NCBI GenBank assembly: GCA_050951805.1
Contig: JBMNJT010000004.1
Coordinates: 106,120-170,119 of the forward strand
DNA: 64,000 bases
Direction of reading: 5' to 3'
Source: Bacillota bacterium
Lineage (GTDB): Bacteria; Bacillota; DTU025
Shown: positions 39,830-59,554 of the stretch, piece by piece
Layout of the letters: every line of letters starts with the position of its first letter
Numbering within the stretch: the first letter of the stretch is position 1
Notes under the pieces: generated by a model
The model's database searches: none
Told to the model about the DNA's origin: nothing
The model's input: only the letters and a program-made list of their open reading frames with translations
Translations under genes and position numbers: made by a program

Positions 39830-40135
39830 ATGTGTAATAAGTCTGCTCCCGTCGGTGGCTTCGGTGCCGATCTTAGCAGTGATAAACCACATTGTCTGTA
39901 CCGATTTTCTGCCTTCCCCGCGGCTTTGCTGCAGATATGCATGACGCGGGTTTTGTTTTGCCTTCCGGCGCTTGTCTCTTGCAAGGCGTTGACGGGGATG
40001 GTTTTGATTCTCCTTCAGATGCCTGAGGATGTGCGGCCCAACTTATTTCTAGCTTTGATTGGGAAATACCGGATTCGGCTCACACTCAACTAATGGGGCG
40101 CTCGTCGCGGCCACCTGGGATTGAAAACCCAACCT

Positions 40136-41645
40136 GTCAACCGACTGTGAAAATGTCACCCCTTTTGGGGGTTAATCCGTCTGAGAAAATGTCACCCCCT
40201 GTGGTTGTGTTCCGCTGGCGAGCCCGCGCATTATGCGCAGGCTCGCGGCCGATTGAGATTAGGGTGCCGCCAGCGGGAAACTGTTGTTTTGTCTGTTTTT
40301 GGTCTGGGTTGCCTAGCGTGCTTGTTGAATGCGTTGTTGACGCTCGTAGCTCGCATGTTTCCAGGGATGATCATCCGGGGGCTTCCATGGCATCCTCGGG
40401 GCTTTAGGCTCTTGGGCTGCAGCCGAGGCTGAGTCTTCGATCGCCGGTGTGGAGTTGAACTCGGCTAGGCTGTAGCATTTTCCCTTGTAGAGTGCGTTGA
40501 TTGACCCGTCCATGTGCGTAAGCACGAAAACGGGATCCCTCCTGGCCAATCCGACAACATGGCCGTATGCGTCCAGAAGACGGAACTTGGTGCCATGGTA
40601 GGATATGAGTGATCCTCCCAGCCCTTGACGAGATTCCCTGATCGAAAGAATCATGTCGAGATCCATGTCGGGGGGCGGGTGTCTCATCAGCTGCAGGAAC
40701 GGCAAAGCGGGCGTTGTACCTGGGGATATATCTGAGGAGGAACTCATTTGCCTGTTCGATTGTGTTGATTCCGGCGAGGCGCATTTCAATAGGCAGTCTT
40801 CCCTGAAGCGTCTCCCATGCGCGCTCAATGCGGCCCTTTGCTTGAGGCGAATGCGCTGGTATGTGAGTGATCTGTAGTTCGTCGAGAATGCGGCCTATCT
40901 GGGTAAGGTTGACCCGTTTGCCCTGGAGTTGTTCTTCGATGGTGAGCTTGTCCATCTTGGGCGAGAAAAACATGGTATGGCGGTCAGAATACAAGCACAG
41001 CGGTATGCCGTTGTTCTCAAGCACCTGACGGAACACATGGAGGTATCCTATGATGTCTTCCTGAGGCCTGAAATACAGGCCCAGGATGGCTCCGGTGGCG
41101 TCGTCGATGATCCCATGAAGCGACATAGCTGGGCCTCTTCCTTCGAGCCAGTCGTAGGGACTGGCGTCGCATTGGAGCAAGATGCCCGATTGGGGTTTTC
41201 GCTCTCGCATGCGTCTGTGGCGCGGGGCTCTTTTGGTGGAGCACACTATCCCGGCTTTTTTCAGCAATCGTTGTACAGTGCGTGGACTCACCGAGATCTG
41301 ATAGCCCTCTGCCATGAGCTCGGACATATGGGTGCAATTTGCGTCTTTCAGGTCGGTCTGAGCTAGCTCTATGATGCGTGATGGGTCTAAAGGCTTGCGT
41401 CCGGCATTGCCATGCCCCAGGGCCTGGACCCCGTTACTCTGCATCTCCTTTTTGATCCGTTTGATCTGGCGGACACTTAATCCAAGCATCTTGGCAGCCT
41501 GCGCGTTTGTGATTTGCCCGGCGGCAAGCTGATCCATTACGAAGACCCTCTTCCGTACTTTTTCCGTCAAGATGACGTCCCCCTTGTTCATGGGTGACAT
41601 TATCTCAGACGCGTTATGGGGTGACAATATCACAGACGCGTAACA
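40136..41645 (-). mobile_element. IS element copy A (about 1.5 kb, rve/DDE transposase, IS481/ISNCY-like), transposase frameshifted
   Basis: Imperfect terminal inverted repeats (left ctgtgaaaatgtcacccc...; right ...ggggtgacaatatcacag), each end carrying a second inner copy of the motif. Near-identical to copy B except for a 14-nt deletion that shifts the transposase frame near 40690. Confidence 0.7.
40404..41633 (-). pseudogene. IS transposase, copy A (N-terminal HTH + rve integrase core), C-terminal part out of frame
   Basis: The N-terminal 330 aa are identical to copy B. The C-terminal region continues in another frame (ORF 40313..40828 encodes the expected ...ILSIRESRQ ... tail). Confidence 0.6.
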
Positions 41646-41662
41646 GATTGAAAACCCAACCT

Positions 41663-43240
41663 GTCAACCGACTGTGAAAATGTCACCCCTTTTGGGGGTT
41701 AATCCGTCTGAGAAAATGTCACCCCCTGTGGTTGTGTTCCGCTGGCGAGCCCGCGCATTATGCGCAGGCTCGCGGCCGAGTCAAGGATCGGCCTGCGGCC
41801 TGCTTTGCTCCTTGACTCGGCCTCTGCGCCTGCTCGAGATTAGGGTGCCGCCAGCGGGGAACTGTTGTTTTGTCTGTCTTGGCTCTGGGCTGCTTTGCGT
41901 GCTTGTTGAATGCGTTGTTGGCGCTGGTAGCTTGCACGTTTCCAGGGATGATCGTCCGGGGGCTTCCATGGCATCCTCGGGGGCTTGGACTCTTTAGCTG
42001 CAGTTGAGGCGGAGTCTTCGACCGCCGGTGTGGAGTTGAACTCGGCCAAGCTGTAGCATTTGCCCTTGTAGAGTGCGCTGATTGACCCGTCCATGTGCGT
42101 AAGCACGGAAACGGGATCCTTCCTGGCCAATCCGACAACATGGCCGTACGCGTCCAGAAGACGGAACTTGGTGCCATGGTAGGATATGAGTGATCCTCCC
42201 AGCGCTTGACGAGATTCCCTGATAGAAAGAATGACGTCCAGATTCATCTCTGGGGTCAGAGCACGAAAAGCGGGTGTCTCATCAGCTGCAGGAACGGCAA
42301 AGCGGGCGTTGTACCTGGGGATATATCTGAGGAGGAACTCATTTGCCTGTTCGATTGTGTTGATTCCGGCGAGGCGCATTTCAATAGGCAGTCTTCCCTG
42401 AAGCGTCTCCCATGCGCGCTCAATGCGGCCCTTTGCTTGAGGCGAATGCGCTGGTATGTGAGTGATCTGTAGTTCGTCGAGAATGCGGCCTATCTGGGTA
42501 AGGTTGACCCGTTTGCCCTGGAGTTGTTCTTCGATGGTGAGCTTGTCCATCTTGGGCGAGAAAAACATGGTATGGCGGTCAGAATACAAGCACAGCGGTA
42601 TGCCGTTGTTCTCAAGCACCTGACGGAACACATGGAGGTATCCTATGATGTCTTCCTGAGGCCTGAAATACAGGCCCAGGATGGCTCCGGTGGCGTCGTC
42701 GATGATCCCATGAAGCGACATAGCTGGGCCTCTTCCTTCGAGCCAGTCGTAGGGACTGGCGTCGCATTGGAGCAAGATGCCCGATTGGGGTTTTCGCTCT
42801 CGCATGCGTCTGTGGCGCGGGGCTCTTTTGGTGGAGCACACTATCCCGGCTTTTTTCAGCAATCGTTGTACAGTGCGTGGACTCACCGAGATCTGATAGC
42901 CCTCTGCCATGAGCTCGGACATATGGGTGCAATTTGCGTCTTTCAGGTCGGTCTGAGCTAGCTCTATGATGCGTGATGGGTCTAAAGGCTTGCGTCCGGC
43001 ATTGCCATGCCCCAGGGCCTGGACCCCGTTACTCTGCATCTCCTTTTTGATCCGTTTGATCTGGCGGACACTTAATCCAAGCATCTTGGCAGCCTGCGCG
43101 TTTGTGATTTGCCCGGCGGCAAGCTGATCCATTACGAAGACCCTCTTCCGTACTTTTTCCGTCAAGATGACGTCCCCCTTGTTCATGGGTGACATTATCT
43201 CAGACGCGTTATGGGGTGACAATATCACAGACGCGTAACA
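41663..43240 (-). mobile_element. IS element copy B (intact; contains an extra 48-nt palindromic insertion in the transposase 3' region)
   Basis: Same ends as copy A. The 48-nt insert ccgagtcaagga ... tccttgactcgg lies at about 41776-41830. Confidence 0.7.
41840..43228 (-). CDS. IS transposase, copy B (HTH + rve/DDE integrase core), apparently intact
   Basis: rve core with D..D..E context (LLQCDASPYDW, LYSDRHTMF, HSPQAKGRIERAWETLQ). The start is set by identity to copy A (MILSPHNASEIMSPMNKGDV...). The ORF track extends it artificially upstream to 43576. Confidence 0.75.
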   Translation of the reverse strand: MILSPHNASEIMSPMNKGDVILTEKVRKRVFVMDQLAAGQITNAQAAKMLGLSVRQIKRIKKEMQSNGVQALGHGNAGRKPLDPSRIIELAQTDLKDANCTHMSELMAEGYQISVSPRTVQRLLKKAGIVCSTKRAPRHRRMRERKPQSGILLQCDASPYDWLEGRGPAMSLHGIIDDATGAILGLYFRPQEDIIGYLHVFRQVLENNGIPLCLYSDRHTMFFSPKMDKLTIEEQLQGKRVNLTQIGRILDELQITHIPAHSPQAKGRIERAWETLQGRLPIEMRLAGINTIEQANEFLLRYIPRYNARFAVPAADETPAFRALTPEMNLDVILSIRESRQALGGSLISYHGTKFRLLDAYGHVVGLARKDPVSVLTHMDGSISALYKGKCYSLAEFNSTPAVEDSASTAAKESKPPRMPWKPPDDHPWKRASYQRQQRIQQARKAAQSQDRQNNSSPLAAP

Positions 43241-43289
43241 GATTGAAAACCCAACCTTGACATCCGCTACACGGGGGTATATACTGTCT

Positions 43290-43630
43290 CCAAGTTTAAA
43301 ATCGCAGCTAAACGCAATGACGGGGATGAGTACTCGCACAGTACCGGGCACAGAGAGCCGGCCTCGAGCTGAAAGCCGGAACCGCGGAAATGCGACGAAC
43401 ATGGCCCCTGAGCGGCCGTCCGAACTTCCTCCGCTTTGCTCCTTGATGGGCAGGGAGGGAAAGTAGGCGCGGACGTGTGCGCACGTTAAAGCGCCGGGGT
43501 CTAGCGAATCGGATGGATTCGCCGCACCTGCCGAGGCGCGGTATCGTGAGAACCGCGTGAACCTGGGTGGTACCACGAAGGATTAGTCCTCTCGTCCCAG
43601 GCATTTTGCCTGGGGGAGAGGGCTTTTTGC
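43290..43630 (+). promoter_or_regulatory. Putative T-box riboswitch leader (probably Met-specific) with antiterminator/terminator, upstream of metF-metH
   Basis: A near-consensus T-box sequence GGGTGGTACCACG (43565-43577; consensus AGGGUGGNACCGCG) sits immediately 5' of a strong terminator hairpin (cctctcgtcccagg cattttg cctgggggagagg, 43588-43620) followed by cttttt. Upstream helices (cgtgtgcgcacg, gcgaatcggatggattcgc) could form stems I-III. The specifier codon was not identified. Confidence 0.5.
43588..43628 (+). terminator. Rho-independent terminator of the leader (14-bp stem, T-tract)
   Basis: cctctcgtcccagg / cctgggggagagg followed by gctttttg. Confidence 0.6.
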
Positions 43631-43709
43631 ATTTGCCCTTCTTGGCTTGGGCGGCTAAAGACTTTTCAGCAGAGATAAGTAGAGAAAGCTCGCGCAGGAG
43701 GGAGTTTTT

Positions 43710-44645
43710 ATGGCAAGATTATTGAACAGGTTGAGGCAGGGCAGCTTTGCGGTTACGGTGGAGGTTAACCCCCCGAAAGGTGCGGATGTTTCCAAGACGC
43801 TTGCGCTGGTTCGCCGGTTTTCTGACCGGGTGGACGCCGTGAATGTGGCGGACTGCCCTATGGCAAATGTGAGGATGAGCCCTATTACCTTAGCCCACCT
43901 TATCCAGCGCGATGTAGGGGTAGAGGCCATTTTCCACCTTACGTGCCGTGATCGCAACACCATAGGGCTTCAGGCGGAGCTTTTGGGTGCCTCCGGGCTC
44001 GGAGTCAGGAACATACTGGCCCTCAGGGGCGATCCGCCGTCGAGGGGGGATCATCCGGAGGCCCATGGAGTGTTCGAGGTAGATGCTGTTGGGCTAATCA
44101 GCTTGGCCGCCGCGCTCAACTCGGGACACACGGTAGGCGGCGGCGAGCTGGGTGAAGGGACCGATTTCGCCATCGGTTGCGTAGCAAATCCCAACGCCGA
44201 AGATCTTGAGGCCGAGATATCGAGGCTGGAGGAGAAGATCGCAGCTGGAGCGCACTTCGTCCAGACCCAGCCCATTTTCGACGTCCGCGCCTATGAAAGG
44301 TGGGCTAATGCCATAGACGGGCGGGTGAGCATCCCTATCCTCTACGGGATACTCCCTATCAAAGATGCTGCCTTTGCTGTGCACCTAAAGGAGAATGTTC
44401 CTGGCATGGCGGTGCCCGACTGGGTTATCGACCGGATGCGCTCCGGGGGAGACGGTGAAGGGTACAGGCTGGCTGCGGAGTTGCTATCGGAGATAGGGAA
44501 GGATATCGCCGGGATACACATCTTCCCCATGAACAGTTCCAAGCGGGTTGTAGGCGTGCTGGACGCCTTGGCCGAGGAGGGGTTTGCGGTGCCCCCGGTA
44601 CAAACGGCATGCGACGGCCTGCGGAAGGTGGCTCCGAACGGATGA
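43710..44645 (+). CDS. metF: 5,10-methylenetetrahydrofolate reductase
   Basis: MTHFR (TIM-barrel) family motifs: FAVTVEVNPPKG, VNVADCPMANVRMSP, LTCRDRN, LALRGDPP. Confidence 0.8.
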   Translation: MARLLNRLRQGSFAVTVEVNPPKGADVSKTLALVRRFSDRVDAVNVADCPMANVRMSPITLAHLIQRDVGVEAIFHLTCRDRNTIGLQAELLGASGLGVRNILALRGDPPSRGDHPEAHGVFEVDAVGLISLAAALNSGHTVGGGELGEGTDFAIGCVANPNAEDLEAEISRLEEKIAAGAHFVQTQPIFDVRAYERWANAIDGRVSIPILYGILPIKDAAFAVHLKENVPGMAVPDWVIDRMRSGGDGEGYRLAAELLSEIGKDIAGIHIFPMNSSKRVVGVLDALAEEGFAVPPVQTACDGLRKVAPNG

Positions 44646-47107
44646 GTGTGCGTGTGGAGGATCTGATCCGTGGGGACGAGGTGTTCGTGTTTGACGGGGC
44701 ATTTGGGACGATGCTTCAGGCGCGCGGTCTGCCTCCCGGAGCCTGTCCTGAAGTGTGGTGCCTAAAGTGCCCGGAAGAAGTGGAGCGGGTTCACCGCCAG
44801 TATATTGATGCCGGCGCGCAGGTGATCGAGACTTGCACTTTCGGGGGCACAGCTTTGCGGCTCGGACATTTCGGGCTAGCTCATGCGGCGCGGGAGATCA
44901 ACCTGGCTGCCGTCGAGATTGCCCGGAGGGCTGCTGCCGACCGCGGAACGCTTGTGGCGGCTTCCATGGGCCCCCTGGGGGCATTGGTGGAGCCTTTGGG
45001 CGAAGTCAGTTTCGATGAAGCCTATCTGCAATTTGCGGAGCAGGCGGAGGCGTTTGCCCTGGCGCGACCGGACCTTATCATCATCGAGACCATTGCCGAT
45101 CTCAACGAGATGCGCGCAGCGCTCCTCGCGTGCCGCGATCGTGCGCCAGACATCCCGGTAATCGCCCAGATGACATTCGATTCCACAGGCCGAACCTTCA
45201 CCGGCACTCCGCCGGAGTCGGCCGCGCTCGTCATGGAGTCGATGGGGGCGTCTGTCGTGGGCGTCAACTGCTCTGTCGGCCCGGACCTGCTCGCAGATGT
45301 TGTAGCTCGGATGGGGGCTGTTACATCAAAGCCAATATCGGTCCAGCCCAATGCTGGACTGCCGCATGTGGGCCCATCGGGGCGGGGCGAGTATCCAATG
45401 GGGCCTGAGGAATTCGCGTCCTACGGCCCTAAGCTGGTGTCGGCGGGAGCCTCTATCGTAGGGGGCTGCTGCGGAACTACCCCGGAGCACATCGCAAGGC
45501 TTCGCAGTGCGCTGGAGGGGCTCCGGCCGATCGTGCGAAGGCGCGAGCCTGAGCTTGGTATAACTTCCCGGACTCAGCCTCTGTTTTTCGCCGATGCGGA
45601 GCTGCCCGCGATTGTGGGCGAGAGGATTAACCCAACTGGCAGGCGCAAACTTGCCCAAGACATTGTCGACGGCAGCTTCGAGCTAGTTCGGAAGGAAGCG
45701 GTTGCTCAGGCTAAGGCGGGAGCGCAAGCTCTCGATGTGAATGTGGGCACGCCTCTTGCGAACGAGCCGTGGGCGATGTATGAAGCAGTGAAGGCGATTG
45801 AGGCGACCACTCGTCTGCCGCTCTGCCTCGACTCTTCATCTGCCGAGGCTCTCGAAGCAGGGCTTCGGGCTTATGCAGGCCGAGCCTTGGTCAACTCCTT
45901 CTCGCTGGAGCGTGGCAGGGAAGAGGACGTGCTGAGGCTTGCAGCCAGATACGGCGCGGCGGTGATAGGCTTGCCTATCGACGAGAACGGGATTCCGGCG
46001 ACGGCAGAGGACCGGCTGAGACTGGCTGAGCGGCTCGTCTCGAGCGCACAATCTCATGGAATCCCCCAAAATGCGGTGATCATCGACGCTTTGGCGATGC
46101 CTTGCGGGGCAAAGCAGGAACAGGCTGTGGAGACTCTCAAGGCCATAGAGATGATCCGCAAAGAGCTGGGCTGCAAGACTTCTCTGGGGATTTCCAATGT
46201 ATCGTTCGGGCTTCCGAGCAAGCCCGTGTTGAACACTGCATTCTTGATGCTGGCCATCGCTGCCGGGTTAGACATGGCTATAGCTAACCCCCTTGATGAG
46301 GCGATGATGGCTCAGGTGCGGGCGGCAAGGGTCCTTCTCGGGCGGGATGTTAATGCGGAAAGATACATCTTGTGGGCGGGCGCGGCGTCGCCTGCACCTC
46401 ATGGCGTTGCTGCCGATCCAGGCGGGAAGAAGAAGTTGACCTTGATCTATGATGCGGTCCTCGGGGGCGACAAGGACCTCGCCGTAAGGTTTGTGGAGGA
46501 GGCGGTTTCGGAGGGAGAGGATCCGTCTTCTATCCTAAACGACGCGCTCATCCCGGCTATAGAAGAGACCGGACGGCGCTTCGCCTCAGGCGCTTACTTC
46601 CTCCCTGAACTGATGCTGTCGGCAGGGGCCATGCAGGCTGCAACTGAAGTTATCAGGTCCAGGGTAGGCAGCGCAGAGGATGCGCCGGCATCCCGAGGAA
46701 CTGTGGTGATTGCCACAGTCGAAGGGGATATCCACGACATAGGCAAGAACATCGTCTCCATGTTCCTCGAAAGCAACGGCTACAACGTAGTAGACCTGGG
46801 AAAGAACGTTAAGGCCAGGGATGTTCTGGCAGGGGCCAAGAAGGCAGGGGCCGACGTGGTCTGCCTGAGCGCGCTGATGACAACGACGGCTCCGAAGATG
46901 CGCGAGTCGATAGAGCTTTTTTCAAGCGAGGGGTACGATTGCCCAATCATCATTGGAGGCGCAGCTACATCACGGGAGTACGCCATACGCATAGGAGCGG
47001 ACGGATACGGCAGTGATGCCGTGGAAGCGGTCTTCGAGGTAGAAAGGCTTTTGGCAAGAAAGCGTGCTTTTGGGCGGCAAAGCGATCAAGTGGGAGGGAA
47101 AGAGTAG
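44642..47107 (+). CDS. metH: Cobalamin-dependent methionine synthase, short form lacking the C-terminal reactivation domain (Hcy S-methyltransferase + pterin-binding + B12 cap + B12-binding)
   Basis: Hcy-binding domain (VFDGAFGTMLQ ... GGCCGTTPEHI), pterin domain (IVGERINPTGRRK ...), B12-binding DxHxxG-like (VEGDIHDIGKNIV). ATG 44642 overlaps the metF stop (ATGA). 821 aa. Confidence 0.85.
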   Translation: MSVRVEDLIRGDEVFVFDGAFGTMLQARGLPPGACPEVWCLKCPEEVERVHRQYIDAGAQVIETCTFGGTALRLGHFGLAHAAREINLAAVEIARRAAADRGTLVAASMGPLGALVEPLGEVSFDEAYLQFAEQAEAFALARPDLIIIETIADLNEMRAALLACRDRAPDIPVIAQMTFDSTGRTFTGTPPESAALVMESMGASVVGVNCSVGPDLLADVVARMGAVTSKPISVQPNAGLPHVGPSGRGEYPMGPEEFASYGPKLVSAGASIVGGCCGTTPEHIARLRSALEGLRPIVRRREPELGITSRTQPLFFADAELPAIVGERINPTGRRKLAQDIVDGSFELVRKEAVAQAKAGAQALDVNVGTPLANEPWAMYEAVKAIEATTRLPLCLDSSSAEALEAGLRAYAGRALVNSFSLERGREEDVLRLAARYGAAVIGLPIDENGIPATAEDRLRLAERLVSSAQSHGIPQNAVIIDALAMPCGAKQEQAVETLKAIEMIRKELGCKTSLGISNVSFGLPSKPVLNTAFLMLAIAAGLDMAIANPLDEAMMAQVRAARVLLGRDVNAERYILWAGAASPAPHGVAADPGGKKKLTLIYDAVLGGDKDLAVRFVEEAVSEGEDPSSILNDALIPAIEETGRRFASGAYFLPELMLSAGAMQAATEVIRSRVGSAEDAPASRGTVVIATVEGDIHDIGKNIVSMFLESNGYNVVDLGKNVKARDVLAGAKKAGADVVCLSALMTTTAPKMRESIELFSSEGYDCPIIIGGAATSREYAIRIGADGYGSDAVEAVFEVERLLARKRAFGRQSDQVGGKE

Positions 47108-48271
47108 ATGGGCTACAGGAGCTTTGAAGAGATAAACGAGAAGATACGCAGCAAAAAGGCGGTTGTTGTGACTGCTGAGGAGATAATAGAGATTGTGGAC
47201 GAGAAGGGGGTAGAGGGGGCCTTTCGCGACGTGGATGTCGTGACTTGCGGCACTTTCAGCCCGATGTGTTCCTCAGGGGCTTTTCTCAACTTCGGCCACT
47301 CTGATCCTCCCATAAGGATGAGCCGCGTGTGGCTAAATGACGTGCCGGCATGCGCTGGGCTTGCTGCTGTAGACGCCTATATCGGTGCAACGGAGCTCTC
47401 GGAGACCGCGGGGATGGAATACGGGGGAGCGCACGTCATCGAAGACCTCATAGCAGGCAGAAAGGTGAGGCTTAAGGCCACTTCCTACGGGACAGACTGT
47501 TATCCTCGGCGCGCGCTCGAGGCATGGATTACCAAGGATTCAATCAATGAGGCCTACATGTTCAACCCCCGCAACTGCTACCAGAATTACGGGGCGGCGA
47601 CCAATTCCTCGGACCGCACTATTTATACGTACATGGGAACACTCCTGCCCCACTTTGGGAATGTGAACTACTGCACTGCAGGCGAGCTCAGCCCTTTGAT
47701 AAACGACCCGTTCTACCGCACGATCGGGTTGGGTTCACGGATATTCCTCGGAGGCGCCCAAGGGTACGTTGCGTGGCAGGGAACCCAGAACAACCCGTCG
47801 CAGCCTCGGGCGGAAAACGGGGTTCCTATCGGCGGAGCGGCATGCCTCGCTCTTATAGGCGACCTAAAACAGATGGATCCGAGATACATAAGGGCCGCCA
47901 GGTTCGAAAAGTATGGGGTGACCATGTTTGTCGGAGTGGGCACTGCCATTCCTCTGCTGGACGAGGAGATGGTCAGATTCGTCGCGGTGCAAAACCGCGA
48001 CATAAAGACGAAGGTCTTTGATTACAGCGTCGGTCGTCGATCCAAACCTGCATTGGCCGAAGTCTCCTACGAGGAACTGCGGAGCGGGAGTGTTCAGATT
48101 GGGTCGCGCACGATCCCTACCGCGCCTCTTTCCAGCCTGAAGGTGGCGCGGGAGATAGCCCAGACGTTGAAAGGCTGGATTGCCCGAGGAGAGTTCCTGT
48201 TGCAGCAGCCTGTGGCGGCTCTTCCGCTCGAAGGCTCGCCGACTACACTAGATAACTGTGAGGGGGAGTAA
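47108..48271 (+). CDS. COG1900/DUF39 homocysteine-biosynthesis protein (methanogen MA1821-type, sulfide-dependent)
   Basis: Length and N-terminal region (KAVVVTAEEIIEIVDEKG ... VDVVTCGTFSPMCSSGAF) fit the DUF39 family. The tight gene order with an NIL-ferredoxin supports the assignment. Confidence 0.65.
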   Translation: MGYRSFEEINEKIRSKKAVVVTAEEIIEIVDEKGVEGAFRDVDVVTCGTFSPMCSSGAFLNFGHSDPPIRMSRVWLNDVPACAGLAAVDAYIGATELSETAGMEYGGAHVIEDLIAGRKVRLKATSYGTDCYPRRALEAWITKDSINEAYMFNPRNCYQNYGAATNSSDRTIYTYMGTLLPHFGNVNYCTAGELSPLINDPFYRTIGLGSRIFLGGAQGYVAWQGTQNNPSQPRAENGVPIGGAACLALIGDLKQMDPRYIRAARFEKYGVTMFVGVGTAIPLLDEEMVRFVAVQNRDIKTKVFDYSVGRRSKPALAEVSYEELRSGSVQIGSRTIPTAPLSSLKVAREIAQTLKGWIARGEFLLQQPVAALPLEGSPTTLDNCEGE

Positions 48272-48273
48272 GG

Positions 48274-48732
48274 ATGACCGTGGAGAGGACTGTTGGGGCC
48301 GATGGCATAACTGATGCGACGACGGCAAAGAGAGTTAAGGCGTTGCTGACCTACCCTCCGGGCGCGGCAGGCAAGCCCATAACTTACTCCCTGATCCGCG
48401 AGTTCGATCTGTGGATCAATATTCTCCACGCCGAAATCGCCGCGGACAAAGCCGGCAAGCTCATCATGGACATACAGGGAAGCGTTGAAGATGTGGATCG
48501 GGGCTTGGAGTTCCTCGACGAAGAGGGCATTGGGTACGAGATCCTAAATGGCAGCATCGTTTGGGATGAGGACAAGTGCGTGCATTGTGGAGCATGCACG
48601 GCTGTATGCCCTTCGCACGCGCTCACTATGGATAACTGTGATTGGAGCCTTGTATTTGACAAAGAGAAATGCTATCTTTGCCGGTTGTGCGCCCGCACAT
48701 GTCCCGTGGGGGCAATGAGCTCGCCCATATAG
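48274..48732 (+). CDS. NIL-domain + 2x[4Fe-4S] ferredoxin protein (MA1822-type partner of COG1900)
   Basis: N-terminal NIL-like domain, then CVHCGACTAVCP and CYLCRLCARTCP clusters. Confidence 0.7.
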   Translation: MTVERTVGADGITDATTAKRVKALLTYPPGAAGKPITYSLIREFDLWINILHAEIAADKAGKLIMDIQGSVEDVDRGLEFLDEEGIGYEILNGSIVWDEDKCVHCGACTAVCPSHALTMDNCDWSLVFDKEKCYLCRLCARTCPVGAMSSPI

Positions 48733-48742
48733 AGGGGGCGGG

Positions 48743-49609
48743 ATGGGCAAAGATAGGTTGGGGGAAAGTTGCGTGAGAGAAGCCTACGAACCGAGGAAAT
48801 ACAGGGAGCTTTTCAGCGCTCAAGATGTAATCTATTTCAGATGCGCCGTGGGGCAGACTGATCTTCAAGTCGGCGTTGGCTTCTCTTGCCCTGATTTTCG
48901 CGGGAAACTTCCCGAAGAGAGCTTTCTTCGGGATCATGTCTCGGGCGTTGTTCTTCGCGCCCGCAGAGATATCGAAAACTACATCGCCACTCACCCCGAG
49001 TTTCTCACTAGCCTCATCCCGGTGATTCCGCGGCCATGGGCGCCGCCTATTGTCAGATGGATGTGCGCCTGTGCTGCGCAGGCAGGGGTGGGGCCCATGG
49101 CCGCCGTGGCCGGCGCCATAAGCGAGACGGTTGGGATCAGCCTCCTGTCGGAGGATAGCCTTTCTAAGCTGTGGCAGCGCGAGCCTGACATTGGGAATCC
49201 TGATGGGCATCGAGCGAGGATAAGTGAAGTGATAGTGGAGAATGGGGGAGACGTGTTCATCGCCTCCAGCCGTTTGCGCAGGGTTGGAATCTACGCGGGC
49301 ACGTCCCCTTTGAGTGGCAAGATTGCCCTGGAGATTGCTCCGGGCCAGACCCCTTGCGGCATCTGTACGTCTTCTGGAACGGTCGGGCATTCGCGCAGTT
49401 TCGGTAGATGCGACGGAGCCGTGATCGTTGCGAAAGACACAGCCCTCGCCGATGCCGTTGCCACTAGGGTCGCAAATGTCGTGAAATCGAGGGAGGACAT
49501 TGAAGAGGCGTTGGACACGGCTTCGAAGATTCCCGGCATAGTCGGGGCTGTTATCGTCATCGGCGATGCCTTGGGGGCATGGGGCGATATCAAGCTGGCG
49601 CCGGCGTGA
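48743..49609 (+). CDS. UPF0280/COG2122 ApbE-superfamily protein (third component of the anaerobic homocysteine biosynthesis set)
   Basis: Family-typical regions PMAAVAGAISETVG and GICTSSGTVGHSRSFG. Last gene of the operon. Confidence 0.55.
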   Translation: MGKDRLGESCVREAYEPRKYRELFSAQDVIYFRCAVGQTDLQVGVGFSCPDFRGKLPEESFLRDHVSGVVLRARRDIENYIATHPEFLTSLIPVIPRPWAPPIVRWMCACAAQAGVGPMAAVAGAISETVGISLLSEDSLSKLWQREPDIGNPDGHRARISEVIVENGGDVFIASSRLRRVGIYAGTSPLSGKIALEIAPGQTPCGICTSSGTVGHSRSFGRCDGAVIVAKDTALADAVATRVANVVKSREDIEEALDTASKIPGIVGAVIVIGDALGAWGDIKLAPA

Positions 49610-49709: not shown

Positions 49710-49820
49710 GTGGCCGACGTGACTGCCAGCCAGTGCTTCTGCCCTTGGTGGTTCTGGCTTTGGGTTGCGATCATCGCATTCATCGTGTGCTGCATCTGCC
49801 GTTTCGTGCTTTGCTGGTAA
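49710..49820 (+). CDS. 36-aa Cys/Trp-rich hydrophobic small protein (sORF 1): VADVTASQCFCPWWFWLWVAIIAFIVCCICRFVLCW
   Basis: AGGAGG RBS (49695-49700) 9 nt upstream of GTG 49710. A paralogous copy lies 197 bp downstream with mostly conservative or synonymous substitutions in this frame. Confidence 0.5.
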   Translation: MADVTASQCFCPWWFWLWVAIIAFIVCCICRFVLCW

Positions 49821-49906: not shown

Positions 49907-50017
49907 GTGGCCGAAGTGACTGCCAGCCAGTGCTGTTTTCCTTGGTGGATTTGGTTTTGGGTAGTGGTAATCGCATTCATCGTGTGCTGCATTTGCCATT
50001 TTATGCTTTGCTGGTAA
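49907..50017 (+). CDS. 36-aa Cys/Trp-rich hydrophobic small protein (sORF 2): VAEVTASQCCFPWWIWFWVVVIAFIVCCICHFMLCW
   Basis: Same AGGAGG RBS and 9-nt spacing to the GTG start; same length and stop. Tandem paralog of sORF 1. Confidence 0.5.
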   Translation: MAEVTASQCCFPWWIWFWVVVIAFIVCCICHFMLCW

Positions 50018-50085: not shown

Positions 50086-50115
50086 GCCATCCGCCCGCCA
50101 CGGTGGGCGGATGGC
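50086..50115 (+). terminator. GC-rich 14-bp hairpin (gccatccgcccgcc ac ggtgggcggatggc) downstream of the sORF pair
   Basis: Seen directly; about 70 nt after the sORF 2 stop. No clear U-tract. Confidence 0.35.
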
Positions 50116-50515
50116 GTTGGTGATGCGTCCCGCCGCACCTGTTAAAAGAAAGGACGGACCCGTTGCAAGGACTGATATCCTTGACCACACAAAAGATGAC
50201 AGGAAAGGTTGGAGATGAGCTTTTATCAGAAGGCGCGCGGCAGGGTCTTCCGCGAAATGGTCGTCACATATTGGCGCCGTGACCGCGTTGATGTTGATAG
50301 CGATAATCGCGTGCTGGATTCTGAAGCCCGAGCGGAAACCCGGACGTGTCTATAGAGCCGATTGTGGGTGCCGCTTTGGCTCCTGATCGATGATGATCAG
50401 CATTTCCGCCTCGCACAAGAACAGAGCAGCAGGACTGCGGCATCGGTGGTCTCTTTCCCTGCGCGATTTAGAGCAGGGAAGGGCGTCGTGCCGCAGTCAG
50501 CTTTGTCTCCACTCA

Positions 50516-53230: not shown

Positions 53231-55093
53231 CTATGCTAGCTTGAACCTGGCTGCAAGCTGCTGTAGCCTTGCTGCCATGTCGGCAAGGGAATGGGAAGCA
53301 GAGGACATCTGCTGCAGCGAAGCGGTGATTTGCTCCGTTGAGGCCGCCACTTCCTCTACTGAAGCCGCGTTTTCTTCGGATATGGCAGCTACGTTTTCGA
53401 TAGCTTTTTGCACTTGTTGTATGCTCGCTGCCATCTGCTGGGATGCCGCGGCGTTCTCGTCAGCCACTGCTACAACTTCTACAGTGGCCTCGTTCACATC
53501 GCTCGCTCCCTCCATCAAGCTGTTGCTAGATTCGACTACTGAATGCGCAAGCTCTAGGTTGTTCGCGGCGTGGTTGCTTATGTTATGCAAAACCTCTGTG
53601 GATTCGATTACCAGTGGAAGGCTCTCTTCTACGAGATCGTTTGTGCCTCTGATGGCCGATGCCACTTTGCCTACTTCTGCCAATGTTTGCTCGATCAGTC
53701 CCGAGATGACCTTCGTTTCATTTAGCGAGCCCTCTGCGAGTTTCCGCACTTCGTCCGCTACCACCGCAAAACCGCGGCCCTGTTCGCCGGCGCGCGCCGC
53801 TTCTATGGCGGCGTTGAGAGCCAGAAGATTGGTCTGATCCGCGATATCCTCTATTACCTGCACCACCTGGACCATCTGGCGCGAACTTGCCTCTAGGTCT
53901 GCCGCCGCCTGCTCCACTTCGTTTGACGAGTTCTTTATCCTTTCCATGCTGGCGGCTACTTGGGCGACTGACCGGTCTCCCTTTTCGGCCTCTTTTGCTG
54001 TGGCATTTATGGCTTCTTCCATTTTCATAACGAAGTCATTTACATGGTCGAGCTCTTGCCCCATTTGGGCTATGAGGCGGGATACGTTCTGCAATTGCTG
54101 CGTTTGCTGGCCCGCTCCATCGGCTATCTGCTCGATTGCTGCAGCCACCTGCTGCGCGCCTGCGGCGGTCTCGCCGGCATTGGCGCTCTGTTGCTCGGCC
54201 CCTGAGGCCATCTCCTGGATTGCCGCGGAAATCTGCTGGGCAGCGTGGGCCGATTCCTCTCCGGATGCGGAGAGCTCTTCGCTGGTGCTCGCAACCTGCT
54301 CAGCTTCGTTTTGCATTTCGCTCAGCAAATTGGTTAGGTTTTCAACCATTTTCCTGGTGGATGTGGCAAGGTCTGCTATTTCGTCGCCTGTGTTGAGGAT
54401 CGGCACTGAGACTGTGAGGTCTCCCTGGGCTACCGACTCCGCGGCGACCTGGATTGTCTTCACCGGTTTGGTGATGTTGCGGTTGAGGAGAATTGTCATG
54501 ATAACCGCTATTGCTATGTTGGCTATCATGCCGACTAAGGAGATTAGATCGTTTATTCTGCTCGCGGACTCTGCTTTGGCAATTGACTGTCTGTTCTGAT
54601 CCTGTATGAGCTGGATCCAATTATGGATTGTCTGGTCAAGTTCGTCTATGAGGAATACTTCTCTTTCTTCGATCAAAGCATAGGCCTCATCCATCATTTC
54701 GAATTCGACAAAGACGGAAATATCGTCTGCGAAGCTGTTGTAACGATTATTTATGTCGGTTAGGAGCTCCAACGCTCGCTGAGATTCCTTATCTTCGCAC
54801 AGCGGCTGCATTTCATCGAAGAGCTGTAGAACGTCGTCATCTATGGTGTAGAACTTGACGATGGTGGCCGGGTCGCCTGTCATTACGTAGCCGCGCAAGG
54901 CTATGCCTTTTTCCAAGATCTCGCTTCGAACTTTCCAAACTATCGTTTCTAGGGGAAGATTTTGCTCAACAAGGTTTGCGTAGTGCTTCGTCGTTACCCT
55001 GTCAGTGTAGATGTTCGCCATGCTCATGATTAGCATGACCAAGAGGACGATTATGTAGGAAAAGATGATCTTGCCTCGTATTTTGAACTTCAT
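53231..55093 (-). CDS. Methyl-accepting chemotaxis protein (4HB-type sensor, HAMP, MCP signalling domain), paralog 1
   Basis: Start at the ATG preceded by GGGAGG (minus strand). The TM-flanked sensor, HAMP and conserved MCP hairpin region are identical over about 460 aa to the next gene. Confidence 0.85.
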
Positions 55094-55295
55094 AGCCTGG
55101 CCTCCCATTACTTCCTGCATATTAATTATATCGACAGGAATGAGGGAAATATTAGGGAGGAAGACGCTCATGAGAAGAATCCGGCTTTTTGTGTGGATTG
55201 GCATAGTCTCGGAGGCCCTTTAGCAGAACCGAGAGAAGTAGTCACAATAGGAAATGAGAAATGCCCTGAGCTGTCAGGGCATTTCTCGATTCGAT

Positions 55296-57158
55296 CTATG
55301 CAAGCTTGAACCTGGCTGCAAGCTGCTGTAGCCTTGCTGCCATGTCGGCAAGGGAATGGGAAGCGGAGGACATCTGCTGCAACGAAGCGGTGACTTGTTC
55401 TGTCGAGGCTGCTACCTCCTCTACTGAAGCCGCGTTTTCTTCGGATATGGCAGCTACGTTTTCGATGGCCTTCTGCATTTGCTGTATACTCGCTGCCATC
55501 TGCTGGGATGCCGCGGCGTTCTCGTCAGCCACTGCTACAACTTCTACAGTGGCCTCGTTCACATCGCTCGCTCCCTCCATCAAGCTGTTGCTAGATTCGA
55601 CTACTGAATGCGCAAGCTCTAGGTTGTTCGCGGCGTGGTTGCTTATGTTATGCAAAACCTCTGTGGATTCGATTACCAGTGGAAGGCTCTCTTCTACGAG
55701 ATCGTTTGTGCCTCTGATGGCCGATGCCACTTTGCCTACTTCTGCCAATGTTTGCTCGATCAGTCCCGAGATGACCTTCGTTTCATTTAGCGAGCCCTCT
55801 GCGAGTTTCCGCACTTCGTCCGCTACCACCGCAAAACCGCGGCCCTGTTCGCCGGCGCGCGCCGCTTCTATGGCGGCGTTGAGAGCCAGAAGATTGGTCT
55901 GATCCGCGATATCCTCTATTACCTGCACCACCTGGACCATCTGGCGCGAACTTGCCTCTAGGTCTGCCGCCGCCTGCTCCACTTCGTTTGACGAGTTCTT
56001 TATCCTTTCCATGCTGGCGGCTACTTGGGCGACTGACCGGTCTCCCTTTTCGGCCTCTTTTGCTGTGGCATTTATGGCTTCTTCCATTTTCATAACGAAG
56101 TCATTTACATGGTCGAGCTCTTGCCCCATTTGGGCTATGAGGCGGGATACGTTCTGCAATTGCTGCGTTTGCTGGCCCGCTCCATCGGCTATCTGCTCGA
56201 TTGCTGCAGCCACCTGCTGCGCGCCTGCGGCGGTCTCGCCGGCATTGGCGCTCTGTTGCTCGGCCCCTGAGGCCATCTCCTGGATTGCCGCGGAAATCTG
56301 CTGGGCAGCGTGGGCCGATTCCTCTCCGGATGCGGAGAGCTCTTCGCTGGTGCTCGCAACCTGCTCAGCTTCGTTTTGCATTTCGCTCAGCAAATTGGTT
56401 AGGTTTTCAACCATTTTCCTGGTGGATGTAGCAAGGTCGGCTATTTCGTCGCCTGTGTTGAGGATCGGCACTGAGACTGTGAGGTCTCCCTGGGCTACCG
56501 CGTCCGCGGCGACCTGGATTGTTTTCACCGGTTTAGTGATGTTGCGGTTGAGGAAAATTGTCATGATAACCGCTATCGCTATGTTGGCTATCATGCCGAC
56601 TAAGGAAAATAGATCCTTTGATTGGCCGGTTGCCTTGGCTGTGTTTACCCAATTGTCATTCAGGCCCTCAATGAACTCGACCCACTCAGCGATGACATCG
56701 TCAACTTGTCCGAGGATCAAAGCGCCTTCATCAGCCATCAATGCGGTTGCCTCTTCTGTCATCCCAAGCTGAACAAGGTGTGAGATGTCTTCGGCGAGCA
56801 AATCATAGCGGTCGTTAATTTCGGCCAATAGCTCCAACGACTGCAATGATTTGCCAGCCTGGCTCAGCATGCGGGCCTTATCCATGCTCTGCTCAACGTT
56901 CTCATCGAGCAGATGGAATCTTTCGATTTCTGCGGGATTGCCCGAGAGTATGTAACCGCGCAGGGCCAGCCCTTTTTCCAAAAGCTCGCTGCGAAGCCTG
57001 TATATTATGGTCTCTCCGGGCAAGCTCCGCTCGATCAGGTTCATATATTCGTTCGTTATCTTACGATCAGCTTGAATGCCGAGTATGCTTATGGCAGCCA
57101 TGACTAAAAGGACGACTGTGTACGACAGTACGATCTTCCCACCTATCTTGAGCTTCAT
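55296..57158 (-). CDS. Methyl-accepting chemotaxis protein, paralog 2 (different sensor domain, identical signalling module)
   Basis: Same as above; start preceded by GGAGGTAGG. The N-terminal 200 aa differ from paralog 1. Confidence 0.85.
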
Positions 57159-57341
57159 TGGCCTACCTCCTGTTGCGTCATGCAATAATCTTATCGGCAA
57201 ACGCAAGCACCGATATTAGGTACGACATCAAAATTTTCGATATAATTTGATATAGACTGACACGGTTTATGCCGATATAGATAATGGGGCATTGGCATCG
57301 CTCATCTACCAAACCTGCGGTAAGGTGGGGAGGTACCAAAC

Positions 57342-59554
57342 GTGGGGAAGATTAATGTTTCAAGTCTGCGCAACCGTTTCGCGCTTGTTCTCATAATTGT
57401 CCTTTTGCCGTGGATTGTAGTGAATGTCAGAAACAATCTAGCTGAACAAGAGGAATTGATGAGGGATGCAGAAGAGCGAAGCCTGAAGCTTCTTGACTAT
57501 CTCGACGAAACAGAGCGTCTCAATCTGAGGAGCATCATGAGGATCATCGAAACCGCGCTGCTGGGCAGAGATGGGCAGGATGGGGGCCACGTTGACCTTA
57601 TGAAGGTTCAGATGCTTGTCGATGTATTTGGATGCGAATTGCCGGTAGCAATAACGGATTTTGGAGGCAATGTGTTGGCGTCCTCTTTTCCCTTGGACAA
57701 TGAAGAGCTTGTGCGTGAAAACCCGCAGGTTCGCGCCGCCGCCGATACAGGCAAGATCTCGTTCGGCAGCTTCCAAGGGATTCTCGGCCCTGATAAGTAT
57801 GGGGTCGTAGTGGCCTATCCCGTGATTGATCCGAGCTATGGCATCCGCTCAATCATAGTAGGTTTCGTAGATGAAGAAAGATTGGCCGATCCCATTGCGC
57901 GAGTCTCGAGCTACCGGCAGACGCTGTTTTCGAGGTGGCTGACCTGGACGGGAACGTGGTCGCGCGCTATTCTCGTGCAAAAGAGGATATGAGGCGTGGC
58001 GAAGCTATGGAACAAGCGATGCTTAAATCCGGGGCAGCGGAAATCAGCGAAAGAAGCCGCAGTGGGTTCATGAAGTTGGAGGATGGCTCAATGCAGCTCG
58101 TTGCAGAAAAGATAATAGTTGATCCCTGCGGCAGGCCAACGCTGCGCGTCGCCGTTACAACTCCGGCTGCCTCTTCTCTTTCTCGCATGAATGACCATAT
58201 CTTGCGCGACCTGAAAGCGCTTTTGGTGGTAGCTGCGATCATCACCCCTGTTCTGTGGGGCATATTCCGTGCAGAAGTAGTGGTGCCTGTAGAAAAATTG
58301 GCGAACTTAGCCAGTCGGCTAGCACAAGGAGAATTCGGAATCAGGCACGGCGAGCCTTACCGCCGTGGGGAACTTGGGCTTCTTGCGAGGACTCTTGACC
58401 AGATGTCAACAGCATTGGAGAGACGCGCAAATGAACTCATCTATCTCAGCCATCACGATTCGTTGACCGGTGCCTATAATCGAACCTACATCGAAAGCAT
58501 CGAAGAGGATTTGAACGCTGAGGACAAGCTTCCTACTACAGTGATTGTGGGCGACATAAACGGGCTAAAGAGGATAAACGATATTTACGGGCATTCAGTC
58601 GGCGATGAGGTTGTGATTGCGGCCGGGAACATCTTTCGCGAATATGTTGGAGAGAAGGGAATCGTAGCTAGGTGGGCAGGGGACGAGTTCATTGCCATTT
58701 TACCAAACACCGACTGGAAAGAGGGCCTGGCAGTGTGCAGGGAGATCAGTCATTCCTGCAGCCAGATGGAGCCTGATCCAGTAGCGCCCAACATAGCCTT
58801 GGGGGTTGCCACACGCGCCACACTCGAGCAGAGTTTGAGAGACACGTGGATTGCGGCTGAGGACCGGATGTACACAAACAAGCTTGCAGGATCAACATCT
58901 GGCAGAGGAAGGTTGCTCCATTCGCTGAGGCAAGCATTGGCTGAAAGCACACATGAGACGCAGCAGCATTCAAGCAGATTGCATTTTCTCGCCACTGAAC
59001 TGGGGAAAGTTATGGGGCTTTCTGCAGGTGCCCTCGATGATCTAGCGCTGCTCGCGGACTTCCACGACATAGGGAAGATCGGGATTCCAGATGCTATACT
59101 TCAGAAGCCCGGTCCGCTCACGCCTCCGGAGTGGGATATGATGATGGCGCACCCTGAGATAGGGGCGAGGATTGTTGGTGGATGCTACGAACTAGAGCAT
59201 ATCGCAGACGCCATCTTATCCCATCACGAAAGGTGGGATGGCACGGGATATCCTAATGGGCTTGCGGGGGATGAAATTCCTCTGATCTCGCGGATCCTTG
59301 CAATTGTTGATGCCTATGATGCCATGACCAGTGACCGTCCTTATCGTACAGCGATGAGCAGGGAAGAGGCGCTTGAGGAGATACAGAGGTGTTCGGGAAC
59401 GCAGTTCGACCCGAATTTAGTTGAGGTATTTGTGAAGATGATGGAAGAGATCGACTTGAAGGAGGAATACGAGAAGAACTGGTTTGAAGGAGACCCATAC
59501 TGGCTGTGCACAACGTTTGACGAGTCCAAGCTTATTGGCGACGGTGATTCTTGA
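57342..59554 (+). pseudogene. Sensor (periplasmic domain + TM) - GGDEF (AGDEF variant) - HD-GYP protein, interrupted by a frameshift near 57935-57990
   Basis: ORFs 57342..57992 and 57935..59554 together are colinear with the intact paralog at 60389..62605 (shared LSHHDSLTGAYNRTYIESIEE, FHDIGKIGIPD, HHERWDGTGYP). The GGDEF motif reads AGDEF. Confidence 0.6.

Follow-up and report, generated by a model that had tools for sequence, protein, structure and literature searches.

A five-gene methionine operon behind a putative Met-specific T-box leader in an uncultured Bacillota bacterium

In Lactobacillales and Staphylococcus, Met-specific T-boxes form a known class of leader ahead of met operons (PMC3771891, PMC2494555, PMC3766115). 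As for homocysteine synthesis, D. vulgaris and D. alaskensis become methionine auxotrophs when DUF39, NIL/Fd or COG2122 is mutated, and in Dehalococcoides the three genes are clustered as DET0921-DET0919 (PMC5764234, PMC4045070). For bacteria the trio thus already has genetic backing, and it is routinely annotated; its genes form a cluster in a wide range of genomes, in many cases together with metF and metH. The hallmark of its COG1900a member is a pair of near-universal cysteines, Cys54 (essential) and Cys131 (PMC12068725). Here we analysed a 64-kb stretch of DNA (the window, taken at its full length) from an uncultured anaerobic Bacillota bacterium, and we consider it highly probable that it holds a five-gene methionine operon under the control of a Met-specific, transcription-attenuating T-box riboswitch.

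Gene order and protein families

The five genes form a tight array on the + strand (43710-49609) in the order metF-metH-HcyBio/DUF39-NIL-ferredoxin-COG2122, behind a promoter, a T-box and an intrinsic terminator, and two small ORFs follow:

43710-44645, + strand: metF, methylenetetrahydrofolate reductase, 311 aa (PF02219, 145 bits, E=2.8e-42)
44642-47107, + strand: metH, cobalamin-dependent methionine synthase, short form, 821 aa (PF02574, PF00809, PF02607, PF02310)
[quoted passage not shown]
48274-48732, + strand: NIL-domain protein with 2x[4Fe-4S] ferredoxin, putative electron-supplying L-ASST subunit, 152 aa (PF09383 NIL, E=3e-13; PF00037 Fer4, two stretches)
48743-49609, + strand: COG2122/UPF0280 (ApbE-superfamily) protein, 288 aa (NCBIfam PRK04334.1-3; PDB 2o34; homolog names)
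49710-49820, + strand: small conserved ORF 1, 36 aa, Cys/Trp-rich and hydrophobic, at the operon 3' end, candidate member
49907-50017, + strand: small conserved ORF 2, paralog of ORF 1 (protein-level conservation)

The C-terminal half of MetF also matches NF006396 (288.9 bits). The start of metH was revised from 44609 in the ORF list to the ATG at 44642, which is preceded by GGAAGGTGG and overlaps the metF stop as ATGA; this 4-nt overlap is followed by spacers of 0, 2 (between the HcyBio and NIL-ferredoxin genes) and 10 nt. MetH combines the Hcy-binding, pterin-binding, B12-cap and B12-binding domains in that order, covers TIGR02082 over model positions 4-862 of 1182 only, and gave no match in the Pfam search to PF02965, the AdoMet reactivation domain present in E. 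coli MetH. Judged from its sequence, it is a short form without the C-terminal reactivation domain.

HcyBio matches PF01837 over its full length (profile positions 1-349 of 349; 521.2 bits, E=1e-156), and its homologs carry the name 'homocysteine biosynthesis protein'. Residues C54 and C131 are invariant in our alignment A1 of 29 sequences; they are equated with the two published cysteines by coinciding numbering, A1 not being aligned to MA1821. PF01837 is the only Pfam domain of the 387-aa protein, which carries no CBS domains, and the Pfam search found no Fer4 match within it, i.e. no ferredoxin insertion, unlike MMP16/COG1900d. Its architecture therefore appears to be that of the bacterial, CBS-less form such as Dde_3007 (PMC4045070), not that of methanogens. 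The COG2122 protein reaches 271.1 bits against PRK04334.1-3 (cutoff 271) and is matched by PDB 2o34 with E=8e-27. Although the Pfam copy used returned no match for the protein itself, PF27030 is found on 120/120 of its homologs among the matches listed, many of which are named UPF0280/ApbE superfamily and one of which is labelled COG2122.

[quoted passage not shown] Two of its phrases need correction. The label 'methanogen-type' is outdated, the trio having been genetically proven in Desulfovibrio and found clustered in Dehalococcoides (PMC4045070, PMC5764234), and the 'complete route' to methionine was overstated, because genes for aspartate-semialdehyde supply are encoded neither in the operon nor elsewhere in the 64-kb window, and the same holds for a MetH reactivation partner. 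A short MetH needs such a reductive partner; tblastn with the L003 protein as query found no RACo-type MetH activase in the window, and Pfam revealed no Met-pathway or reactivation gene among its remaining 29 larger ORFs. The ORF 1 protein is conserved directly after the COG2122 gene in five related loci (L001, L005, L091, L092, L093), and neither small peptide matches a Pfam or NCBIfam family.

By analogy with the Methanosarcina and Desulfovibrio homologs, from whose genetics and biochemistry the enzyme activities are taken, HcyBio and the NIL-ferredoxin, aided by the COG2122 protein, would convert aspartate semialdehyde and sulfide to homocysteine; MetF would supply methyl-THF, and MetH would methylate homocysteine to methionine.

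The leader and its specifier codon

The following elements precede metF:

40131-43250, - strand: two tandem ISNCY-family insertion sequences (context only), with 6 nt between them and the -35 box
43257-43285, + strand: sigma-70-type promoter TTGACA-17 nt-TATACT (11/12 consensus matches)
43308-43602, + strand: T-box leader (Rfam RF00230, model positions 1-219 of 219, 85.5 bits, E=5.1e-19)
43585-43628, + strand: intrinsic terminator, 18-bp hairpin plus U-tract (-40.2 kcal/mol, z=-4.73; 0/200 shuffles fold as well)

The leader is a T-box by its sequence motifs, its covariation and its alternative folds. Stem I (~43313-43413) contains the K-turn AAUGA, the S-turn AGUA/GAA, the AG bulge AGAGA and the distal loop GCUGAAA (as the strings AAUGA, AUGAGUA...GAA, CAGAGAG and GCUGAAA), and compensatory changes affect 11 of its 22 pairs among the 11 leaders compared. 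The T-box sequence GGGUGGUACCACG lies at 43565-43577, and an antiterminator fold with the canonical 7-nt bulge UGGUACC (43568-43574) is predicted; since the terminator's 5' arm and the antiterminator's 3' arm overlap, with the CUCUCGUCCCAGG strand common to both, the two folds are alternatives. The earlier note had claimed a T-box leader with an AUG specifier, and both were found: the next-best Rfam matches have E>2, leaving the T-box and no other class, and the AUG (Met) sits at 43401-43403 in the Stem I specifier loop, followed by G43404 and then the CCCC helix. At 85.5 bits the match falls short of the curated RF00230 gathering score (93): the leader shows up only in E-value mode, and a scan at the gathering threshold reports no riboswitch in it; we attribute this shortfall to three long insertions and a G+C content of 62%. 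Our own Stem I covariance model R1, with which 12 homologous leaders were found, scores the window leader at 90.2 bits.

Every leader reads GAA-N-AUG-G and then the closing helix, with N being G in L078 but C in the other 11 distinct leaders (12 in all), so that AUG is constant while the -1 frame shifts from CAU to GAU. The UGGU of the bulge calls for A73 as the discriminator, which is the base that tRNA-Met has. There is no tRNA-Met gene in the 64-kb window, and the anticodon and discriminator pairings are therefore predicted ones. In S. aureus, the choice of tRNA was governed mainly by something other than the AUG specifier (PMC3771891), so that here, too, the leader may respond to either initiator or elongator tRNA-Met.

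What the analysis shows directly is the set of sequence elements with their conservation and covariation, the pair of alternative folds, and the family to which each protein belongs; the following scenario is inferred. Transcription would start from the promoter at 43257-43285 and, as long as tRNA-Met is mostly charged, the leader would form the terminator at 43585-43628 and transcription would stop before metF. When methionine is scarce, the CAU anticodon of uncharged tRNA-Met would pair with the AUG specifier in Stem I and its free 3' ACCA with the UGGU of the T-box bulge (43568-43571); this predicted binding would stabilise the antiterminator, and RNA polymerase would read through into the five genes, which are probably co-transcribed.

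Two rival readings concern the leader itself. The specifier loop has one extra 3'-side nucleotide compared with the minimal GAA-codon-purine layout, and position alone would permit CAU (His), AUG or UGG (Trp) within the overlapping frames of GAACAUGG. Specificity for another amino acid is extremely unlikely all the same, because the corresponding string in L078 is GAAGAUGG, where the -1 frame would turn from His to Asp and AUG is unchanged, because UGG would precede a paired C instead of the conserved unpaired purine, and because methionine genes lie downstream of all 12 leaders; moreover, from established knowledge of tRNA identity, the UGGU bulge suits A73 (Met), not C73 (His) or G73 (bacterial Trp). 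The CAU and UGG frames were rejected on these grounds. A different objection is that the leader might be a decaying or non-functional T-box remnant, with the operon constitutive or otherwise controlled, e.g. through a promoter effect of the adjacent IS, a thought prompted by the Rfam score under the gathering threshold and by the two IS copies abutting the promoter. We regard this as very unlikely, given that all functional motifs are intact, that Stem I shows compensatory changes and that terminator and antiterminator are both well formed. The promoter, CCAACCTTGACA...TATACT, is kept in L001 and L091, neither of which has an IS upstream; homology to these two relatives begins at 43251, and leader plus promoter are 77-80% identical to theirs at the nucleotide level. 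Of the eight related T-boxes given an Rfam score, seven likewise stay under the gathering score, so that a sub-threshold score is a trait of this GC-rich subclass with its insertions and does not point to decay; default Rfam annotation would miss a regulon made up of such leaders.

Related operons and the unity of the locus

Synteny in related genomes, which the earlier note had proposed to check, is extensive: the same gene order is found behind a T-box in L001, L005, L091 and L092 and behind a SAM-I riboswitch in L003 and L087-L090. The recurrence of both leader and gene order on the four independent T-box contigs is far beyond chance. Among the nearest relatives, the syntenic orthologous operons thus carry either a T-box (window, L001, L091/L092, L005) or SAM-I (L003/L004, L087-L090), and the statement that an S-box is the usual leader of such operons held, SAM-I preceding 5/9 distinct metF-first operons; among 80 GTDB loci, about 20 have SAM-I and 9 a T-box. 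The trio commonly shares one cluster with metF/metH; 11 GTDB loci with the trio (Acetivibrionales, other Clostridia) matched neither an Rfam family at the gathering score nor our own T-box model. Neighbour-joining trees of MetF, MetH and HcyBio disagree on the monophyly of the T-box carriers and would allow one leader swap or two; a single T-box origin is favoured by the leaders of the window and L005, which are nearly identical.

A second group consists of nine loci, mostly Actinomycetota/Coriobacteriia MAGs (L015, L047, L049, L051, L055, L069, L077, L078, L084), in which an AUG T-box precedes HcyBio-NIL-Fd. Downstream of these genes, metH is present in six (L047, L049, L051, L055, L069, L084) and as a contig-end fragment in L077, and metF in 5/9; only HcyBio and NIL-Fd are visible in the sequence examined for L015 and L078.

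These comparisons also bear on two rival readings of the genes. DUF39/NIL-Fd/COG2122 might put sulfur into another aldehyde, as MMP16/ComF does for coenzyme M, instead of forming homocysteine, since COG1900 has paralogous subfamilies with other substrates (PMC12068725) and HcyBio gives a partial match to TIGR03287. That match, however, amounts to 147 bits, far under the cutoff of 364, and comes without a ferredoxin insertion; the full-length PF01837 domain with invariant C54/C131 is typical of COG1900a, the genes share their close translational packing with metH and metF, all behind a Met T-box (SAM-I in relatives), and bacterial homologs are needed for methionine prototrophy, all of which makes another substrate most unlikely. 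We also judge it improbable, if a little less so, that the five genes are split over more than one transcription unit, an internal promoter or partial terminator uncoupling the homocysteine genes from metF and metH. Spacers of 0-10 nt with one start/stop overlap, and the single leader per operon in relatives, argue for one unit, even though the trio makes its own unit in other lineages. Weak promoter-like sites (9/12 matches) do occur within metH at 45054-45081, and weak terminator-like hairpins at 47268 and 48927, but such sites are no commoner than in shuffled sequence (terminator-like sites within the operon, 5 observed vs 7.6 expected).

Significance and comparison with known systems

Every part of the five-gene T-box operon is of a known kind, and no new mechanism, enzyme or pathway is revealed; the one mildly unusual feature is that a T-box takes the place which a SAM riboswitch has in close relatives. 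The orthologous operons offer a clear-cut, testable natural example of riboswitch-class swapping, SAM-I reporting on the methyl-donor pool and the T-box on tRNA-Met charging, and one that lies outside Bacilli, where the S-box/T-box swap was previously described. Going by the leaders, at least two lineages would use a T-box to control the bacterial sulfide/aspartate-semialdehyde homocysteine pathway, and the GC-rich, insertion-bearing T-box subclass below the Rfam gathering score will be under-reported by annotation pipelines. A broader and rather doubtful proposal is that one lineage (window, L001, L091/L092, L005) swapped an ancestral SAM-I for a Met T-box on the syntenic metF-metH-L-ASST operon, so that tRNA-Met charging and not SAM governs the homocysteine route; this lineage, which has no RACo in the operon, carries one or two copies of the gene for the 36-aa Cys/Trp-rich membrane peptide downstream, possibly a linked, undescribed component, e.g. 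for sulfide/thiol handling at the membrane. With the parallel Actinomycetota/Coriobacteriia T-boxes added, it might constitute an unreported Met T-box regulon for L-ASST, though Met T-boxes before these genes in Clostridia/Actinobacteria may already stand in comparative surveys, RegPrecise or TBDB.

Among known regulators, the met-leader of S. aureus metICFE-mdh and the Met T-box regulon of Lactobacillales resemble the window leader in that an AUG T-box acts by transcription attenuation before methionine genes and replaces the S-box of related Firmicutes (PMC3771891, PMC2494555, PMC3766115). The targets differ, being metF, metH and the sulfide/aspartate-semialdehyde route in the window but trans-sulfuration or direct sulfhydrylation genes plus metE in S. 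aureus and Lactobacillales; so do the hosts, Clostridia-type Bacillota as against Bacilli, and no CodY layer is known for the window operon. As for the enzymes, Methanosarcina acetivorans MA1821/MA1822 with MA1715 (COG2122) likewise bring together a COG1900a protein bearing the conserved cysteine pair, its NIL-ferredoxin partner and the COG2122 helper (PMC12068725, PMC5764234). The M. acetivorans L-ASST, however, has C-terminal CBS (SAM-sensing) domains, which the window protein lacks, so that control lies in an allosteric domain there and, by prediction, at the RNA level here; furthermore, the window trio is contiguous and joined into a metF-metH operon, unlike the M. acetivorans genes. Desulfovibrio (Dde_3007; DvMF_1464, DvMF_0262, DvMF_0044) and Dehalococcoides have the bacterial, CBS-less version of the same three proteins co-occurring with a short MetH without activation domain (PMC4045070, PMC5764234), although the three Desulfovibrio genes are dispersed, as seen from their locus tags, with no T-box reported, whereas those of the window are contiguous.

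The SAM-I operons L003/L004, L087, L088, L089 and L090 share the metF-metH-HcyBio-NIL-Fd-COG2122 set with 55-77% protein identity and a single riboswitch leader, and SAM-I with the same gene set also occurs in many Clostridia (e.g. L017 Wukongibacter, L024 Paramaledivibacter, L028 Marinisporobacter, L036 Lutispora). Their leaders sense SAM, whereas that of the window would sense uncharged tRNA-Met, and a RACo-type corrinoid activase lies between metH and HcyBio in 4/5 of the SAM-I operons (not L087) but in none of the T-box operons. Finally, in the Actinomycetota/Coriobacteriia-type loci the L-ASST genes are T-box-led in 9/9, with an AUG specifier and a Stem I very like that of the window; in contrast to the window, gene order is reversed (HcyBio first), no COG2122 gene lies in the operon, and HcyBio is only 57-64% identical to the window protein.

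Genes and T-box leader of the operon

The window holds an ordinary, well-formed methionine T-box operon of known parts, with the following features.

43257-43285 (+): near-consensus sigma-70 promoter, TTGACA-17-TATACT
43308-43602: T-box leader, RF00230 at full length (model positions 1-219), 85.5 bits, E=5.1e-19
43585-43628: strong predicted terminator (-40.2 kcal/mol, z=-4.7), then a U-tract
43710-44645: metF
44642 (start): metH, 821 aa; Hcy-binding, pterin-binding, B12-cap and B12-binding domains
47108-48271: HcyBio/DUF39, PF01837, 521 bits
48274-48732: NIL + 2x[4Fe-4S] ferredoxin (NIL-Fd)
48743-49609: COG2122-type protein, 288 aa

The genes follow one another with a 4-nt overlap and then spacers of 0, 2 and 10 nt. 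The metH ATG at 44642, preceded by a ribosome-binding site, overlaps the metF stop as ATGA (the mechanical ORF start is 44609), and no PF02965 reactivation domain was found in the product, so that MetH is short, as the earlier note had held. That note had also named the three downstream proteins, and the matches to PF01837, NIL + 2x[4Fe-4S] and COG2122/UPF0280 bear it out. The last of them had no match in the Pfam copy searched; its score suffices for the NCBIfam PRK04334.1-3 cutoff, PDB 2o34 is matched at E=8e-27, and its homologs, all with the newer PF27030, are named UPF0280, ApbE superfamily or COG2122. The metH region (44001-46000) has 62% G+C versus about 52-56% over most of the window, which could reflect gene-specific composition or past horizontal transfer.

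At gathering thresholds, Rfam returned one tRNA and nothing else in the whole 64-kb window. The leader emerged from a permissive scan of 43000-43800, in which every other family had E>2, and its 85.5 bits lie just below the curated RF00230 cutoff of 93; this check sustains the T-box proposed earlier. All canonical elements appear in the RF00230 alignment (basal K-turn AAUGA, S-turn AGUA/GAA, AG bulge AGAGA, distal loop GCUGAAA, T-box sequence GGGUGGUACCACG). Folding predicts two alternative structures with one strand in common, terminator versus antiterminator, the latter carrying the textbook 7-nt UGGUACC bulge, and the alignment of homologous leaders contains compensatory changes at 11 of the 22 Stem I pairs.

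Specifier codon and probable mode of action

On the 3' side of the specifier loop stands GAA-C-AUG-G, and the CCCC helix comes next. With one nucleotide more than the minimal layout, this loop permits CAU, AUG or UGG by position alone. We compared 12 distinct homologous leaders, identified through motif searches, Rfam and a covariance model derived from aligned Stem I sequences; they come from the window, the relatives' contigs L001, L005 and L091/L092 (one leader, two contigs) and nine loci of a GTDB panel. AUG, then G and the helix, is kept in all 12. In L078, a panel locus, G replaces the C before AUG, which would turn a CAU frame from His to Asp while AUG stays the same. If UGG were read, the next base would be a paired pyrimidine, where an unpaired purine is conserved. 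Methionine genes lie downstream of every leader, and a UGGU bulge calls for discriminator A73, as in tRNA-Met. By these four points of the comparison (the constant AUG-G-helix, the L078 substitution, the wrong context for UGG, and the methionine genes with the UGGU bulge) the specifier is AUG (Met), where it had been expected. The leader most likely follows the standard T-box mechanism: uncharged tRNA-Met would dock onto Stem I, its free 3' end would stabilise the antiterminator, and without it the terminator would halt transcription upstream of metF.

Flanking elements and the homocysteine pathway

The operon is bordered by insertion sequences on one side and small ORFs on the other.

about 40131-43250 (-): two tandem ISNCY-family insertion sequences, about 1.5-1.6 kb each
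40404-41633 and 41840 to about 43180: their transposase ORFs, NF033594, 348 and 382 bits
49710-49820 and 49907-50017 (+): 36-aa ORFs, about 100 nt past the COG2122 gene
L001 7131-7238 and 7328-7429, L005 10641-10748, L091 8890-8997 and 9087-9188: counterparts of the 36-aa ORFs
53231-55204 and 55296-57206 (-): adjacent paralogous CHASE3-HAMP-MCP methyl-accepting chemotaxis proteins
57935-59554 and 60362-62605 (+): paralogous pair of HAMP-GGDEF-HD-GYP proteins
59686-59761: tRNA-Glu, between the two preceding genes

The ISNCY copies are 96.5% identical to each other, their terminal inverted repeats contain internal GGGTGACA repeats, and the junction string ATTGAAAACCCAACC occurs at both outer ends as well as between the two copies. 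The element stops 6 nt short of the -35 box, which is undisrupted; homology to IS-free relatives starts exactly at 43251, and the met promoter is native.

No convincing terminator was found after the COG2122 gene. The two window small ORFs are paralogous, Cys/Trp-rich and hydrophobic (MADVTASQCFCPWWFWLWVAIIAFIVCCICRFVLCW and a variant), each with AGGAGG as its ribosome-binding site plus a conserved -10-like CATAG(A/T)AT box. They have no Pfam or NCBIfam family match. Conserved at the protein level, they sit right behind the operon in every T-box-lineage contig, and the SAM-I relatives lack them. A 563-aa alpha/beta-hydrolase (Peptidase_S15/Abhydrolase) gene, present in L001, L091, L092, L093 and L005 and not in the window, sits in these relatives between the small ORFs and a conserved minus-strand gene of 217-244 aa; comparing about 50114-50470 of the window with L091 9300-11155 and L001 7632-9323, we find that the window's lineage has apparently lost about 1.85 kb.

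[quoted passage not shown] Unlike the coenzyme-M paralog, the window protein has no ferredoxin insertion, and unlike the methanogen enzyme it has no CBS domains. Desulfovibrio mutants in DUF39, NIL/ferredoxin and COG2122 are methionine auxotrophs, homoserine is no intermediate there, and the three genes form a cluster in Dehalococcoides (PMC5764234, PMC4045070); databases already name such proteins "homocysteine biosynthesis protein". The trio is therefore neither methanogen-specific nor new in bacteria, and the label "methanogen-type" is outdated. The "complete route" was likewise overstated: the sulfide-route trio, metF and metH do share one cluster, but the other window genes serve unrelated transport, signalling and housekeeping (besides one tRNA-Glu), so the genes for aspartate-semialdehyde supply and for the reductive reactivation of MetH lie elsewhere. 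As a whole, the observation is confirmed and its interpretation supported.

T-box and SAM-I leaders on related operons

Among 80 GTDB loci with HcyBio 56-71% identical, most of those from Bacillota have the three genes side by side, and in many Clostridia metF and metH come next; homocysteine synthesis and methionine synthase are thus commonly linked. About 20 of the 80 have SAM-I motifs upstream, confirmed by Rfam in 11/11 tested (51-94 bits). Three of these, from Peptostreptococcales-type Clostridia, carry two full aptamers serially before HcyBio-NIL-Fd-COG2122-metF-metH.

L017 5572-5677 and 5797-5902: tandem SAM-I
L022 2899-3003 and 3165-3267: tandem SAM-I
L024 5321-5426 and 5723-5826: tandem SAM-I
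L053 1547-1651 and L056 4169-4273: second T-box type

An AUG T-box precedes nine of the 80, mostly Actinomycetota/Coriobacteriia-type MAGs; HcyBio-NIL-Fd comes first in all nine, followed by metH in six (L077 has a further fragment of it at a contig end) and by metF in five, and COG2122 is in none of the nine operons. About 50 loci, some incomplete, had no detected leader. Eleven such Bacillota loci with HcyBio-NIL-Fd-COG2122 (L009, L010, L012, L014, L016, L021, L025, L026, L030, L040, L062; Acetivibrionales, Clostridiaceae, Christensenellaceae and Veillonellaceae MAGs) gave no Rfam family at gathering score and no match to the T-box Stem I model. The second T-box type, with specifier region ...GAAAGGUGAGCCG-CCCC and possibly a GCC (Ala) specifier, precedes a roughly 407-aa aminotransferase-like gene directly upstream of HcyBio; in L056 a SAM-I motif then lies directly before HcyBio.

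In the nearest clade, comprising operons with the window's metF-first order, the T-box is carried by the window, L001 (92% HcyBio identity), L091/L092 and L005 (76%), and SAM-I takes the equivalent position in L003/L004, L087, L088, L089 and L090 (about 71-75%). L091, L005 and L003 belong to the assemblies GCA_050951785.1, GCA_034926675.1 and GCA_012840345.1, respectively. Four of the five SAM-I versions encode, between metH and HcyBio, a RACo-type reductive activase of corrinoid enzymes (Fer2 + Raco_middle + RACo_C_ter), which presumably reactivates the short MetH.

L003 6298-7932: RACo-type activase
L088 5197-6921: RACo-type activase
L089 5715-6938: RACo-type activase
L090 5809-6744: RACo-type activase

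It is missing from L087 and the T-box versions, and no homolog was found anywhere in the window.

We see modest interest in the alternation of T-box and SAM-I on orthologous operons, in the L-ASST pathway standing under T-box control in two lineages, and in the way this T-box subclass systematically scores too low in Rfam (7 of 8 leaders fall under the gathering score). The single indexed paper in which both "T-box" and "DUF39" occur seems unrelated, judging by its title and abstract; the main comparative T-box survey may already have tabulated T-boxes on these genes. According to the Schoenfelder hypothesis, T-box control is favoured where the metK, methionine-salvage and polyamine pathways have been lost. 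In Lactobacillales and Staphylococcus, Met T-boxes are documented to have taken the place of the S-box (PMC3766115, PMC3771891, PMC2494555), and the window adds a further instance, in another host group and on another pathway.
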